From a virus (taxonomy: Duplodnaviria > Heunggongvirae > Uroviricota > Caudoviricetes), in the IMG/VR virus record IMGVR_UViG_2778261085_000001: a stretch of DNA of 7,164 bases; one strand, written 5' to 3'. The position numbers were made by a program, and so were the translations under genes. Of the stretch, positions 2,448 to 6,694 are shown one piece after another. Below the pieces are notes generated by a model. That model made no database searches and was not told the origin of the DNA. It saw only the letters and a list, made by a program, of their open reading frames with translations. Position 1 is the stretch's first letter; every line of letters starts with the position of its first letter.

Positions 2448-2810
2448 ATGGCGACTTTGACCAAAGAAGAACGGTTTACCAAAGAGCAGTTAATAGCCCA
2501 CGCAGAGGAGACTATTGAATCACAGAGACTGTGCATACCAGGTACAATCGACCATGACCTCATTCGCGCATATAAGATGGATATTGCTGTTCTGGAAATT
2601 GCACTGCAATCGCTGGCAGCAGCGCCAGTTGGTAAATTTTATGAATACAAACCAGTGGGGTATCAGCGTCTGGTCGACGAGTTAACCATGCAGGTAAAGC
2701 AGTTAACCTGGCAACTGAGGAAAGCGAAGCCGGACTGCAAACTGCCGGATAAGGTGATGGACTACCTGGAGCGAAACGGACTGATAAGCGTGGAGGATAT
2801 TTTACGATGA
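2448..2810 (+). CDS. Phage hypothetical protein (120 aa)
   Basis: ATG at 2448 lies 1 nt after the preceding stop. No family recognised. The stop overlaps the start of a downstream small ORF (ATGA). Confidence 0.6.
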
Positions 2811-2890
2811 CCTGGCCTGAAGCATTCACAACGGCAGGAATTGCGATGGCGGTGGCGCTGATGGTGTATTCGATTTGCCGCTGGGGATAA
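2807..2890 (+). CDS. Small hydrophobic peptide (27 aa, [27 protein letters not shown]), likely a single-pass membrane peptide; absent from the ORF track
   Basis: ATG at 2807 overlaps the upstream stop (ATGA) and has a GGAGG SD at 2793-2797. It is the last ORF before the operon terminator at 2901-2926. Confidence 0.4.
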
Positions 2891-2895
2891 CAAAC

Positions 2896-2926
2896 AAAAA
2901 CCCCGGATTGACGGTCCGGGGTTTTT
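2896..2926 (+). terminator. Intrinsic (rho-independent) terminator ending the early operon; probably bidirectional
   Basis: Perfect 7-bp stem CCCCGGA (2901-2907) pairing with TCCGGGG (2915-2921), 7-nt loop, then TTTTT (2922-2926). An A-run precedes the stem, so the reverse strand also sees a hairpin followed by a U-run. Confidence 0.8.
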
Positions 2927-3085
2927 GAAGGAAACAAACAGAAACAACAATTGCCGTTATCTGTTGCCACCAATGACAAGTAAACGTATCACAGGCGAGC
3001 GCATTGCGCCGTTCTGACGCGCATAAGGTAGATCAGATTTCAGGAGCTGGCAATAAAAAGTTGGTGGAAAGTCTGATGCAGATGT

Positions 3086-3112
3086 GAAAAGACAGCCCCG
3101 AAAACGGGGCCG
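3086..3112 (-). terminator. Intrinsic terminator for the minus-strand 96-aa gene
   Basis: GCCCCG (3095-3100) pairs with CGGGGC (3105-3110) across an AAAA loop. On the minus-strand RNA the hairpin is followed by UGUCUUUUCA. It lies about 8 nt after the stop codon at 3119-3121. Confidence 0.7.
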
Positions 3113-3118
3113 GATTTA

Positions 3119-3409
3119 CTAAGCACCAATAATTCTGAAGATGTAATCCTTGAAGATGAGAGCCAGAGCTGCAGCAACAATAAACCACTGGAGTCGATCA
3201 AACTTGGTTTCCAGCTTGTTGAACCGTCTTTCGGTTTCTTGCTCCATTTTGTCGAGGCGCTTATCTATAACGTTCAGGCGTGTATCCATCTCACGACGGA
3301 GGTTATCAACGTTTTCTTGTGTTGCCAGGTGTTGCATGTTCTGCTGGCGATGCAACAAAGCATTCAGCACATCGCTGGTGCTGAACTCAATTTTTTTGTC
3401 GTCACTCAT
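3119..3409 (-). CDS. Coiled-coil protein with C-terminal transmembrane anchor (96 aa); possibly XhlA-like or DUF1640-like
   Basis: ATG at 3407-3409 (minus) has a strong AGGAGG SD 5 nt upstream. The central region is charged and heptad-like (RREMDTRLNVIDKRLDKMEQETERRFNKLETKFDRLQ); the C-terminus is hydrophobic (WFIVAAALALIFKDYIFRIIGA). It is a stand-alone opposite-strand gene with its own promoter and terminator. The family assignment is from memory and uncertain. Confidence 0.6.
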   Translation of the reverse strand: MSDDKKIEFSTSDVLNALLHRQQNMQHLATQENVDNLRREMDTRLNVIDKRLDKMEQETERRFNKLETKFDRLQWFIVAAALALIFKDYIFRIIGA

Positions 3410-3414
3410 GCTGG

Positions 3415-3453
3415 CCTCCTGTATAGGGAATCGTGGTACAGGAAAAACCTGTT
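3415..3453 (-). promoter_or_regulatory. 5'UTR with two mutually exclusive hairpins, one of which overlaps the SD of the 96-aa gene
   Basis: Plus-strand motifs are CCTGTA (3418-3423), TACAGG (3437-3442) and CCTGT (3448-3452). On the minus-strand mRNA this reads 5'-AACAGG-UUUUU-CCUGUA-(13 nt)-UACAGGAGG-CCAGC-AUG. The central CCUGUA can pair either upstream (SD free) or downstream with UACAGG (first half of the SD buried). Confidence 0.4.
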
Positions 3454-3459
3454 AAGTAA

Positions 3460-3488
3460 ATAGTAAAGTTAATCGCTTCACTCATCAA
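3460..3488 (-). promoter_or_regulatory. Putative sigma70-type promoter for the 96-aa minus-strand gene
   Basis: On the minus strand: -35 TTGATG (plus 3483-3488), 17-nt spacer, -10 TACTAT (plus 3460-3465). The predicted transcription start is near plus 3453, at the first UTR hairpin. Hexamer matching by eye only. Confidence 0.3.
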
Positions 3489-3508
3489 GAGAGGAAGCAC
3501 AGAAGCGG

Positions 3509-3538
3509 TTGACGACAACAGAAATCAGAGACAATATT
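3509..3538 (+). promoter_or_regulatory. Putative divergent sigma70-type promoter for the 3591 to 5668 gene block
   Basis: TTGACG at 3509-3514, 18-nt spacer, AATATT at 3533-3538. If real, transcription starts near 3545, which excludes the track's TTG start at 3537 and favours ATG 3591. Confidence 0.3.
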
Positions 3539-3590
3539 GCCGCACGCCAGCCTGAACAACTGGCACCTGCTGCGCCAGCAGAGAAAACAG

Positions 3591-3863
3591 ATGGCGCACC
3601 ACACCAAATTACACAATTCTGATACCGCCCCTGCCAGCAGATACGGGCGGCGTTCGCGCGCATTTAAAACCGACTGGTTCCAGCATGATCCATGCACTGA
3701 AGAGCAGGCAGAGTGGCTAATTCAGAACTACCGCAGACGTGGTTACGAGTTTCAGAAAGACCTCAGCCTCGACTTCCGACACTGGATAATCTCAGTCAGA
3801 CTGCCTTACTCTGAACGCCCACCGCGTCCGTCCCGCACATTCCAGCAACGCATCTGGAGGTAA
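3591..3863 (+). CDS. Basic hypothetical protein (90 aa) immediately upstream of the DUF968-like gene
   Basis: ATG at 3591 is in frame with the track ORF 3537-3863. The stop at 3861-3863 lies 1 nt before the next GTG start. Arg/Lys-rich; no family recognised. Start choice is uncertain because the local SD is weak (AGAGAAAA). Confidence 0.45.
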   Translation: MAHHTKLHNSDTAPASRYGRRSRAFKTDWFQHDPCTEEQAEWLIQNYRRRGYEFQKDLSLDFRHWIISVRLPYSERPPRPSRTFQQRIWR

Positions 3864-3864
3864 C

Positions 3865-4914
3865 GTGCGGGTATTGCTTCGACCTGTTCATGTACCGGAA
3901 CTTGGGCTGGTGGTCCTTAAACCTGGCCGTGAATCCATGCAGGTATTTCATAGCCCTCGAGTGCTGGTGGAGCCGGAACCGAAAAACATGCGCGGTCTGC
4001 CGTCCGGAGCTGTTCCTGCCGTTCGCCAGCCGCTGGCGGAAGATAAATCATTACTGCCATTTTTCAGCGATGAGCGGGTGATTCGTGCTGCTGGCGGCGC
4101 TGGTGCACTATCTGACTGGCTCCTGCGTCATGTCAAATCCTGCCAGTGGCCTCATGGTGACTATCATCACAGTGAAATCGTCATACATCGTTACGGTACC
4201 GGCGCGATGGTGTTGTGCTGGCACTGTGACAATCAACTGCGCGACCAGACCTCGGAATCGCTAGAGCAACTTGCTCATCAAAATCTGACAGCCTGGATGA
4301 TTGACGTCATCCGTCACGCAATGAATGGCACGCAGGAGCGGGAGTTATCGCTGGCTGAATTATCCTGGTGGGCGGTCTGCAATCAGGTGGCGGACGCGCT
4401 ACCGGAAGCAGTATTACGCCGTTCGCTGGGATTACCGGTGGAAAAAATCCGTTCCCTGTACCGCGAAAGCGACATCGTACCGGGAGAGCAGACAGCTACC
4501 AGCATACTGAAGCAGCGCACAAAAAATATTGCGCTACCACCTCACGCCCACCAGCAACAGAACGCACCACAGGAAAAGACGGTGGTCAGCATTGCCGTAG
4601 ATCCGGAGTCTCCGGAATCTTTCATGAAGCGACCTAAACGTCGCCGTTGGATAAATGAGAAATATACACGCTGGGTAAAGACACAGCCGTGTGCGTGCTG
4701 TGGTAAGCCAGCCGACGATCCCCATCACCTGATTGGTCATGGTCAGGGCGGAATGGGAACAAAATCCCACGATATTTTCACGCTACCGTTATGCCGGGAA
4801 CATCACAACGAACTTCATGCGGATCCGCTGGCGTTCGAAGAAAAGCATGGTTCCCAGGTTGATTTAATTTTTCGTTTTCTTGATCACGCCTTTGCAACCG
4901 GCGTGCTCGGGTAA
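3865..4914 (+). CDS. DUF968-like prophage protein with a C-terminal Cys/His-rich HNH-like motif (349 aa)
   Basis: GTG at 3865 follows a GGAGG SD at 3856-3860. The C-terminus carries CACCGKPADDPHHLIGHGQGG...LPLCREHHNELH, a zinc-finger/HNH-type arrangement. Length and position just upstream of rusA and Q resemble what I recall of E. coli Qin prophage YdfU, although Qin as I recall it has no rusA between them. Confidence 0.6.
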   Translation: MRVLLRPVHVPELGLVVLKPGRESMQVFHSPRVLVEPEPKNMRGLPSGAVPAVRQPLAEDKSLLPFFSDERVIRAAGGAGALSDWLLRHVKSCQWPHGDYHHSEIVIHRYGTGAMVLCWHCDNQLRDQTSESLEQLAHQNLTAWMIDVIRHAMNGTQERELSLAELSWWAVCNQVADALPEAVLRRSLGLPVEKIRSLYRESDIVPGEQTATSILKQRTKNIALPPHAHQQQNAPQEKTVVSIAVDPESPESFMKRPKRRRWINEKYTRWVKTQPCACCGKPADDPHHLIGHGQGGMGTKSHDIFTLPLCREHHNELHADPLAFEEKHGSQVDLIFRFLDHAFATGVLG

Positions 4915-5676: not shown

Positions 5677-5694
5677 AGCCCGATTACTCGGGCT
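5677..5694. terminator. GC-rich hairpin between convergent Q and the minus-strand moron; candidate bidirectional terminator
   Basis: AGCCCGA (5677-5683) pairs with TCGGGCT (5688-5694) across a 4-nt loop, giving a 7-bp stem. The minus-gene stop codon (plus TTA at 5684-5686) lies in the loop. Flanking runs are only moderately T-rich, so efficiency is uncertain. Confidence 0.4.
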
Positions 5695-6694
5695 TATCTT
5701 CAACATCTTTCACATGTAAAATTACGGCGGACTTGATATCTCCATCAATGTGTTTGGCATTGATGCTTAAATGCACAGGCTTTCTTTCCCATTCAGCTCG
5801 CTGTAAGGCTTCTTTGTTCCCTGATTCATCAAGGAATATATCCTGAACAACGCAGGTCAAACGTTGATCAGAATCGACCTTTCGAACCTTAACTTTGAAG
5901 CTTTCGGGGTCGGTATTATTCACTTCTTCGATACGGTATATACCGTCTATTCTCATTTCAACTGAGCGCCGACGAGCATTTGTTACTAGCTCTTTTGCCG
6001 TTTCTGAATCTATTGTGACACCGTCAATTTCTGCTGAATCTGAACGCACGAAAGATTTAACCATGGTGGTTTTAGCGTCATAAGACATTCGATCCATATT
6101 GTCGAGTAGAGGTTTTTTAGCCACCATTTCTGAGATGATTTGGAGGCGTTTTGTTTCCTCCTGTGTCATCACTTGCATTGCGCGTAGGTGTTCTTTGTCG
6201 CCTTCTTTAGCAATTTCAGCCAACCGAGTATCTTTACGGTTATCCAGATAGCGTTTGAAGACGGTTACACCGCCCCATATAACGGCAGCACCGAGAACCG
6301 TAAATACAATCTCTGTGGCGTTCATTTTCCCTACCAGTTCGTGCGTAAGCTTGCTTAGGAAGCCATCAATGTTAATCTCTACAAGAGATGAACCTTGCTC
6401 TACTGTAACTTCAATTTCTAAAGCATCAAGTTCTTCTTTTGTTAGCCTGCGGACATCAGGAGTTCCGAACTTTGCTAGCGCATAAGACTTATTGAGTTGC
6501 GATTGCATTTCAACAAATCCTTTCATAACTGAAGGTGTGAGTGATTTGTTGAATTTTTCACCAGTCAACCTGATGGTTAGACTTGGCCAACCATTGAAAC
6601 TAATTTTTTCGGGTAAAGCTTGTCCGTTTAGGTAACGTTCAAGTAATTCAAAAGCTTGCTGTTCAGACTCAACGTCGTAATGTATTTCGTACAA
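5684..6694 (-). CDS. AT-rich moron: hypothetical protein with a central transmembrane helix (336 aa); function unknown, candidate phage-exclusion protein
   Basis: A long minus-strand ORF with a TTG start at 6692-6694. There is an in-frame stop five codons upstream and no ATG or GTG between, so TTG is the only possible start for the full-length ORF; a GAGGG SD lies 6 nt upstream. One clear hydrophobic segment (ATEIVFTVLGAAVIWGGVTVF) sits between two soluble charged domains. G+C in four 60-nt lines I counted by hand is 38-47 percent, against about 58 percent in two lines of the DUF968-like gene. It is not a porin: no signal peptide and no C-terminal Phe. Confidence 0.65.
   Translation of the reverse strand: MYEIHYDVESEQQAFELLERYLNGQALPEKISFNGWPSLTIRLTGEKFNKSLTPSVMKGFVEMQSQLNKSYALAKFGTPDVRRLTKEELDALEIEVTVEQGSSLVEINIDGFLSKLTHELVGKMNATEIVFTVLGAAVIWGGVTVFKRYLDNRKDTRLAEIAKEGDKEHLRAMQVMTQEETKRLQIISEMVAKKPLLDNMDRMSYDAKTTMVKSFVRSDSAEIDGVTIDSETAKELVTNARRRSVEMRIDGIYRIEEVNNTDPESFKVKVRKVDSDQRLTCVVQDIFLDESGNKEALQRAEWERKPVHLSINAKHIDGDIKSAVILHVKDVEDKPE

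Follow-up and report, generated by a model that had tools for sequence, protein, structure and literature searches.

A prophage accessory-gene leader with two mutually exclusive hairpins and a predicted preference for the Shine-Dalgarno-sequestering fold

Described leader hairpins and the layout of the locus

RBS hairpins of about -10 to -11 kcal/mol depress translation initiation unless a single-stranded standby is available, and the loss of initiation is roughly tenfold for every 1.4 kcal/mol of hairpin (PMC5934652). In fourU thermometers, such as that of Salmonella agsA, a U-rich stretch within a short 5' UTR pairs with the AGGA of the Shine-Dalgarno (SD) sequence (PMC2887971, PMC3185406). 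The MS2 maturation-gene leader, hok, and H. pylori aapA3 have in common an early 5' hairpin that yields to a stabler, SD-sequestering fold; these are long mRNAs with 5'-3' long-distance interactions, antisense RNAs, and documented covariation (PMC4615214, PMC6733600).

The window analyzed here, a stretch of 7,164 nucleotides from a Caudoviricetes record in IMG/VR, derives from a lambdoid prophage, of which it covers the nin/Q region (DUF968, RusA, and antiterminator Q), and resembles prophages of E. coli RM11911 and others. Phage "morons," a concept associated with Hendrix, Juhala, and colleagues, are reportedly autonomous promoter-gene-terminator units inserted between phage genes. The window contains a cassette of this kind: it has its own promoter (predicted) and intrinsic terminator, lies between nin-region genes with discrete, mosaic boundaries, is interchangeable with hok, and occurs in variable prophage backgrounds. 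It differs from the described units in that its gene runs antisense to the early-right operon, with expression in lysogens presumed.

The single strand of interest is the minus strand, on which the gene for a 96-aa protein is preceded by the RNA leader 5'-AACAGGUUUUUCCUGUACCACGAUUCCCUAUACAGGAGGCCAGC-AUG. The length of 44 nt given to this leader follows from placing the start of transcription at the predicted A3453 (Table 1). The promoter itself is predicted from the sequence to be a weak sigma-70 type, matching the consensus at 8 of 12 positions and scoring below the threshold of the promoter scan, which did not call it. Its 17-nt spacer is variable at six columns while both hexamers are invariant, and three unrelated upstream contexts join the cassette just 5' of the -35, with the hexamers and the leader kept behind all of them.

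Table 1. Features of the cassette and of the leader, in window coordinates
Feature	Position	Strand	Basis and remarks
Whole accessory-gene ("moron") cassette	3060..3539	-	480 bp: terminator, CDS, leader, promoter
Intrinsic terminator, CGGCCCCG-UUUU-CGGGGCUG then UCUUUUC	3093..3112	-	Terminator scan; 8 pairs, 7 of them G-C; conserved in cassette copies
96-aa gene, DUF1640/CCDC90-like coiled-coil protein	3119..3409	-	ORF list, 89 homologs, alignment A1
Coding hairpin, GUUCAGCAC...GUGCUGAAU	3362..3386	-	Codons 9-16; surrounded by base pairs joining AUG-codon 5 to codons 16-22
Start codon AUG	3409-3407	-	Sequence
H2, SD-sequestering hairpin	3413..3449	-	11 bp, -10.8 kcal/mol, MFE fold
Shine-Dalgarno AGGAGG	3415..3420	-	Sequence; 5 nt before AUG
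H1, 5'-terminal hairpin ACAGG-UUUUU-CCUGU	3438..3452	-	5 bp, U5 loop, -6.1 kcal/mol at 37 °C
Predicted transcription start A3453	3453	-	Promoter geometry alone; A 7 nt after -10
Predicted -10 hexamer TACTAT	3460..3465	-	Sequence; invariant; 17-nt spacing from -35
Predicted -35 hexamer TTGATG	3483..3488	-	Sequence; invariant in every cassette copy

Two competing hairpins and their predicted energetics

The initial annotation of this leader described three copies of a CCTGTA/TACAGG motif. All three sites are present (ACAGG at 3452-3448, CCUGUA at 3442-3437, and UACAGG at 3423-3418, minus strand), but the first copy, AACAGG, matches the other two at only five of six positions. As the annotation had also proposed, the central copy can pair either upstream, forming H1, or downstream, forming H2. 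Both hairpins are individually stable, contrary to the outcome that the annotation had named first as counting against it, and they are mutually exclusive because the CCUGU arm is common to both. H2 is assembled from UUCCUGUA (3444-3437) paired with UACAGGAG (3423-3416), and GGU (3449-3447) paired with GCC (3415-3413), around a loop of 13 nt (3436-3424); it is the centroid as well as the MFE fold, leaving only 4 unpaired nt between it and the predicted 5' end.

The two folds had been assigned opposite effects on the SD, and here the outcome is divided. Downstream pairing does bury the SD, with all of its bases paired in H2 (A-U, G-C, G-C, A-U, G.U, then G.U across a 2-nt bulge) and a mean unpaired probability of 0.05. 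Upstream pairing, by contrast, does not leave the SD free as supposed: in the best H1-containing folds, it is still partly paired with the CCU of the UUCCCU tract. The G.U pairs and the GG/CC pairs that extend H2 are relevant only in RNA of the minus strand. At the DNA level, ACAGG-N5-CCTGT forms a perfect palindrome of 15 bp spanning about +2 to +16, and a further half-site, the third, lies 30 bp downstream.

The leader appears to be thermodynamically one-sided, with no equilibrium switch in the predicted energies. At 37 °C, H2 is computed to be 3.1 kcal/mol better than the best H1-containing fold, and this gap stays within 3.1-3.3 kcal/mol across 25, 30, 37, 42, and 45 °C; the comparison at 30 and 42 °C that had been suggested as a check thus gives H2 as better by ~3 kcal/mol at both temperatures. 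Predicted occupancies between 20 and 75 °C are 0.94-0.98 for H2 and 0.02-0.05 for H1. Under the nearest-neighbor model, the H2 core has a pair probability of 0.965 at 30 °C (0.974 at 45 °C), and no melting of H2 is predicted in a scan from 20 to 80 °C. Complete opening of the six SD bases has a probability of 1.4e-4 at 30 °C, which rises only ~3-fold by 40 °C and reaches 7e-4 at 45 °C. A thermometer in which the SD melts, one of the roles first proposed for this leader, is therefore disfavored on these models, since H2 is predicted to dominate throughout the temperatures scanned and to stay closed through 30-45 °C. The leader does resemble fourU thermometers in that its 5' UTR is short and the AGGA of its SD is paired to a U-rich stretch. 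It differs from them in that the SD partner is U..UUCCU, with two G-C pairs, rather than UUUU; in that H2 has no internal mismatch and a predicted occupancy of at least 0.94 up to 75 °C; in that no Rfam match is found; and in that the 96-aa gene is neither a heat-shock nor a virulence gene (PMC2887971, PMC3185406).

The order of folding on the nascent RNA is predicted to be H1 before H2. H1 is the MFE structure while the transcript is 16-38 nt long, H2 replaces it at 40 nt and beyond, and the barrier from H1 to H2 is estimated at ~9.8 kcal/mol. From this barrier, the lifetime of H1 might be a fraction of a second to seconds, a rough estimate for which the rate constants are uncertain. The leader would thus have the folding order associated with kinetic control, in which an early 5' structure gives way to a stabler one that sequesters the SD, as in the MS2 maturation-gene leader, hok, and aapA3. 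Like these, it has a nearby, C/U-rich anti-SD, and the cassette fills the hok slot of related prophages. Unlike these, the leader is only 44 nt long, has no antisense RNA gene and no covariation, and precedes a gene for a 96-aa coiled-coil protein rather than a toxin peptide of <60 aa (PMC4615214, PMC6733600).

How unusual the leader is depends on the property considered. When the leader is shuffled, a 5-mer that pairs perfectly both upstream and downstream arises in 0.24% of cases by mononucleotide and 0.075% by dinucleotide shuffling; with SD overlap required, the figure is 0.04%. The layout was chosen post hoc out of the whole window. The stability of the RNA, however, is not unusual: the folding energy of the leader has a z score of -0.55, a stability equaled or exceeded by 48 of 200 shuffles, and the costs of opening the SD (5.0 kcal/mol) and positions -15 to -5 (4.9 kcal/mol) are close to the respective shuffle means (4.6 and 5.0 kcal/mol). 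Of the 64 annotated genes compared from the same genome region, 42% equal or exceed the SD opening cost, and 30% equal or exceed that of the ribosome footprint (-18 to +13). SD occlusion of this degree is typical for the C/U-rich composition. Because the SD opening cost is mid-range among neighbors, any damping would be no stronger than in ordinary genes. H2 resembles the described SD-enclosing RBS hairpins in its energy of about -10 to -11 kcal/mol, in the fixed cut in 30S access predicted from it, and in that the availability of single-stranded standby RNA decides the degree of inhibition; it differs in being separated by 4 nt from the 5' end predicted for a cellular/prophage mRNA, in being a prediction, and in having a computed opening cost no higher than that of neighboring genes (PMC5934652). 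A scan of the whole window against Rfam 15 (E <= 1) gave no match at 3400-3460. Three sub-threshold matches of the same scan lie at 2889-2997.

The cassette, its product, and variation among its copies

The boundaries of the cassette are apparent from comparison with E. coli A8 (L082). BLAST aligns the flanks (2677-3059 and 3540-4000) as homologous sequence, whereas the intervening 3060-3539 corresponds to a 474-bp hok/Gef cassette. In L060-63 and L081, upstream homology stops just 5' of the -35. Strains C8 and PapM-36-2 carry hok and this cassette together, with a homolog that bears a +1 frameshift. The cassette is rare: of 5426 complete E. coli genomes, 6 carry it, with a few more copies in IMG/VR, one metagenome contig, and draft assemblies, and the prophage backgrounds in which it sits differ in their neighboring modules. 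The leader was not found on other genes and occurs only with the 96-aa gene. To phage biologists, this context may be of more interest than the hairpins: in the nin region, hok alternates with a discrete cassette of 480 bp, which encodes an uncharacterized, repeat-length-variable, DUF1640-like anchored coiled-coil protein.

In the protein, a conserved N-terminal part (HLATQE) is followed by a variable repeat region and then, at the C-terminus, by a hydrophobic anchor, KFDRLQWFIVAAALALIFKDY. The H-x-A-T-Q-E motif is invariant, while the 7/11-residue repeats of the coiled coil vary greatly in number. No Pfam or NCBIfam profile, PF07798 included, scores above cut-off for the 96-aa protein; relatives reach 20.6 and 30.6 bits against PF07798 (cut-off 33.5), and hhalign matches the protein to DUF1640-like relatives at 99.5% (E 1.7e-22), in an alignment of 85 columns that runs from the motif to the C-terminus. 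Searches of Pfam, NCBIfam, and PHROGs otherwise return weak coiled-coil or "hemolysin" matches alone. In DUF1640 proteins, the coiled-coil stalk opens with a beta-layer motif, [aliphatic]-A-T-K-x-[DE]; the L-A-T-Q-E-S/N of the 96-aa protein is a variant of it (PMC4786415). A C-terminal membrane anchor is a further mark of DUF1640/CCDC90-like proteins. The 96-aa protein and its homologs range from Escherichia to Vibrio and Sulfurimonas. Matches of the 96-aa protein in the PDB were discarded as HA2-like coiled-coil noise, and a literature search on the protein's accessions gave no match.

Tight translational control had been linked in the initial annotation to a toxic or membrane-active product, and this description fits in part. 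The C-terminal hydrophobic anchor agrees with it, but a 96-aa coiled coil is not a type I toxin-like peptide. A type I toxin-antitoxin locus was accordingly rejected, the product being 96 aa and mostly coiled coil, as against a small hydrophobic toxin of typically <60 aa. For an antisense RNA to the 96-aa gene, we found no consensus promoter on the opposite strand within the gene and no Sok-like Rfam match; on the plus strand, just one hairpin (3363-3385) resembles a terminator, and 5 nt separate it from its T run. On the minus strand, the first 113 nt of the RNA fold at -32.9 kcal/mol (z = -2.31). The coding hairpin listed in Table 1 was considered as a conserved RNA element or as an antisense terminator and rejected (permutation test, p = 0.17); the conserved peptide FSTSDVLN largely accounts for its pairing.

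More than 25 copies of the cassette were gathered from E. coli genomes, IMG/VR, one metagenome contig, and Logan/NCBI assemblies. Six distinct leader variants are present across more than 20 loci, differing at five leader columns. The 21 columns of the core stems are untouched: two substitutions and one insertion affect the H2 loop, and the remaining variable columns are the last SD base and the spacer between SD and AUG. The change in the last SD base, from G to C, occurs in the L060 lineage (SD AGGAGC) and lies in the outer U.G pair of H2. Among seven aligned sequences, the pairs of H1 (5 of 5) and nearly all those of H2 (10 of 11) are invariant, and compensatory changes in the H1 and H2 stems number zero because the stems never vary and so hold no variation that could reveal any. 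A Fisher test for avoidance of the stems gives ~0.035, or 0.065 without the SD arm (hand counts from alignment A2; C(24,5)/C(45,5)). In the comparison of the window with L060, the most diverged pair, none of 21 stem positions is changed while 10 of 39 third codon positions are (p = 0.008); non-stem leader positions are changed at 4 of 23, which is about the neutral rate (synonymous 26%).

Stem invariance is in part a matter of shared ancestry, because most lineages share a recently exchanged left block. Most lineages differ in this block, which reaches codon 16, by 0-3 substitutions across 79-80 nt, the L047 type also having one single-base insertion, and the block gives way to a recombination breakpoint near codon 17. 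With the block so nearly identical, identity among most lineages says little. The comparison of the window with L060 is modest, post hoc evidence that the stem bases are constrained, which could be at the level of either RNA or DNA.

Conservation of the motif, which the initial annotation had proposed to check in homologs, does not extend to homologous genes in other genera and is confined to the invariant stems within the cassette. Leaders of the Photorhabdus, Erwinia, Pantoea, Salmonella, and Vibrio homologs are unrelated in sequence and lack the three-motif layout, and none of these leaders occludes its SD beyond its own shuffles.

Explanations for the repeat layout

The explanation we favor, tentatively and at somewhat less than an even chance, is that SD/anti-SD pairing in H2 provides constitutive translational damping and does not act as a switch. 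The 5-bp, 5'-terminal H1 would form first as the RNA emerges; once nucleotides 31-41 are made, the CCUGU arm would re-pair with UACAGG to yield the 11-bp H2, which would hold the strong AGGAGG SD against the U/C-rich anti-SD, 4 nt from the 5' end. Being always on, H2 would lower translation initiation to a modest fixed level and would sense neither temperature nor ligand. The likely result would be that lysogens make a membrane-anchored protein from a weak promoter at a low and fixed level, and the paired 5' end may also stabilize the mRNA. Formation of H2 in vivo, a limiting effect of H2 on translation, and selection on the RNA as the cause of stem conservation are all inferred. If H2 works as proposed, it would be another case of SD/anti-SD pairing, giving low expression of a prophage accessory membrane protein; this would be of value for annotation and unsurprising. 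The main value of the analysis is negative, in that a layout resembling a riboswitch or thermometer by eye is nevertheless predicted to be one-sided and is statistically ordinary in its SD occlusion. That ordinariness, in both folding energy and SD occlusion relative to shuffles and neighboring genes, also fits the strongest competitor of constitutive damping, an unlikely but by no means negligible one, in which the repeats have no dedicated function: they would have arisen by chance or through past events such as a small duplication or inversion, and their invariance would reflect recent common origin. The rarity of the cassette (6 of 5426 complete E. coli genomes), the left block nearly identical among most lineages up to the breakpoint near codon 17, and the post hoc choice of the feature agree with such an origin, which is harder to reconcile with a three-motif layout seen in <0.3% of shuffles and with stems unchanged (0 of 21) between the window and L060, where synonymous change is 26% and the rest of the leader varies at about the neutral rate.

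A true translational switch, the role originally envisaged, appears to us clearly unlikely. H1 and H2 would then be alternative functional states, their balance set kinetically, with a brief window for translation of nascent mRNA before H2 forms, on the model of the MS2 maturation-gene leader. Such a window is conceivable given that H1 is favored until 38 nt have been made and that the ~9.8 kcal/mol barrier could let it persist for a fraction of a second to seconds, but the SD is partly paired even in the best H1-containing folds, and H1 makes up <= 5% at equilibrium at any temperature, with H2 ~3 kcal/mol ahead at 25-45 °C. The three-way complementarity is rare in shuffles (0.075-0.24%; 0.04% with SD overlap) and the stems are invariant, to be set against ordinary TIR occlusion, no Rfam match, no covariation, and absence of the layout from homologs elsewhere. 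Likewise, the cassette shares its prophage slot with hok, of a gene class governed by metastable mRNA folds (PMC6733600), yet its product is not a short toxin peptide. A variant of the switch, in which an sRNA or protein partner binds the UUUUUCCUGUACC arm or H1, would correspond to the responsive leader initially suggested, a suggestion that loses ground in that no trans-acting RNA or protein partner was found. A search of the prophage for a GGTACAGGAAAAACC-like trans partner gave nine scattered 3-mismatch matches, versus ~1 expected, in unrelated genes; these were attributed to A-rich word bias and rejected. In its minimal form, a kinetic gate, H1 would hold the anti-SD arm for ~1 s, only nascent transcripts would be translated, and H2 would then close the mRNA permanently. 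We regard this as improbable; were it true, each transcript of the hok-interchangeable cassette would deliver a small fixed burst of a membrane-anchored, DUF1640-like protein. Only slightly more credible, and still quite unlikely, is that the repeats act as DNA, with a dimeric repressor of the cassette promoter binding the palindrome and the RNA hairpins being a by-product. Repressor operators are typically positioned over the start site. The palindrome overlies the predicted start site here, and a perfect palindrome at +2 to +16 would fit an operator equally well. The palindrome and direct-repeat geometry can be read directly from the sequence, exact repeats that are rare by chance combined with RNA stability that is not unusual would suit a protein-binding site, and the stem bases are conserved without compensatory change. 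The G.U pairs and the GG/CC extension of H2, on the other hand, would matter only in minus-strand RNA; ACAGGN5CCTGT (<= 1 mismatch) has a single occurrence in the 45-kb RM11911 prophage, and the palindrome is also unique in the window; it is unlike the immunity-region repeats of that prophage; and the neighboring prophage modules differ, with no candidate regulator linked to the cassette. A further point in favor of an operator comes from the homologous gene in other genera, which has a different promoter, with a TTGCAA -35 inside a different, conserved palindrome, TGCAAAATTTTGCA. Because these genera carry that palindrome over the -35, transcriptional control of the gene family is plausible.

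Repeat variation in the 96-aa protein family and its shared slot with hok

The 96-aa protein belongs to a family (P0001-P0089; loci L002-L039) in which the N-terminal 40 residues are near-invariant and the C-terminal anchor is likewise kept, the two being separated by coiled-coil repeats of 7 or 11 residues, such as DKRFEQV, NQRFEAxDKAL, and EKNLNEKIDNV. The copy number of these repeats is highly variable, even among close relatives, giving protein lengths from 88 to more than 190 aa. Members occur in Escherichia, Photorhabdus, Vibrio, Sulfurimonas, and Methyloprofundus, and profile comparison ties the family to DUF1640.

When the window is compared with the homologous locus of E. coli A8 (L082, 1750-2223; see also L040, 4024-4179), the entire cassette and a hok/Gef type I toxin cassette are seen to be alternatives at the same nin-region slot, where they lie in opposite orientations. 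Strains C8 and PapM-36-2 carry both cassettes, and their homologue of the 96-aa gene has a single T inserted after codon 12 (+1).

Genomic setting and promoters of the homologues

Outside E. coli, a recognizable prophage is not always present around the homologue gene. The gene adjoins dusA and pspG in Pantoea (L064, L065, and L077) and lies directly downstream of icd in Photorhabdus luminescens (L007), where the neighboring genes, judged by eye, look like queD and GTP cyclohydrolase I. Both of these flanking genes, dusA and icd, are known hot spots for integration. In Salmonella (L044-L046, 3372-3671), the homologue faces another small gene, a match to PF07798 (CCDC90-like/DUF1640), and the two convergent genes overlap by 4 nt. 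This arrangement suggests that paralogous anchored coiled-coil proteins can occur in pairs.

The homologue promoters in other genera have a conserved TTGCAA -35 element inside a palindrome, for example CTGCAAAATTTTGCAAG, which we regard as a candidate operator. The palindrome precedes the -10 element by about 35-45 nt at L002-L016, L044, L059, L064, L073, and L076-L080; the E. coli cassette lacks this candidate operator. On the plus strand of the window, a promoter-like site stands back-to-back with the cassette promoter and points at the genes for the 90-aa protein, DUF968, RusA, and Q.

Features of the cassette and of the surrounding window
Feature	Position in window	Strand	Details
96-aa gene cassette	3060-3539	-	alternates with hok/Gef
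96-aa gene	3119-3409	-	
mRNA nt 1-113	3341-3453	-	-32.9 kcal/mol, z -2.31
Coding hairpin	3362-3386		9 bp
Promoter-like site	3509-3538	+	TTGACG-18-AATATT; 9/12 match, ~1 such site expected by chance in this kilobase
Rfam hits (three, overlapping, sub-threshold)	2889-2997	-	rnk leader, Betaproteobacteria toxic sRNA, PsrR1; E 0.2-0.8; scores roughly half of gathering score
336-aa ORF	5684-6694	-	convergent with Q; phrog_6191 match nearly end to end, E 8e-143

Fold of the mRNA start and other features of the window

Over nt 1-113 of the mRNA, the predicted fold consists of H2, the leader hairpin predicted to sequester the Shine-Dalgarno sequence, and a long hairpin in which codons 16-22 pair with the stretch from AUG to codon 5, enclosing the coding hairpin. 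The pairing of this coding hairpin is explained by the conserved peptide FSTSDVLN (27 homologues; permutation p = 0.17). Read on the plus strand, where T7 follows, the same hairpin is terminator-like.

The Rfam hits fall in a non-coding stretch that stands upstream of hok in related prophages, and are probably chance matches. The 336-aa ORF is a further accessory gene downstream of the antiterminator gene Q; Pfam and NCBIfam searches gave no family for it, and the phrog_6191 group that it matches has no known function.
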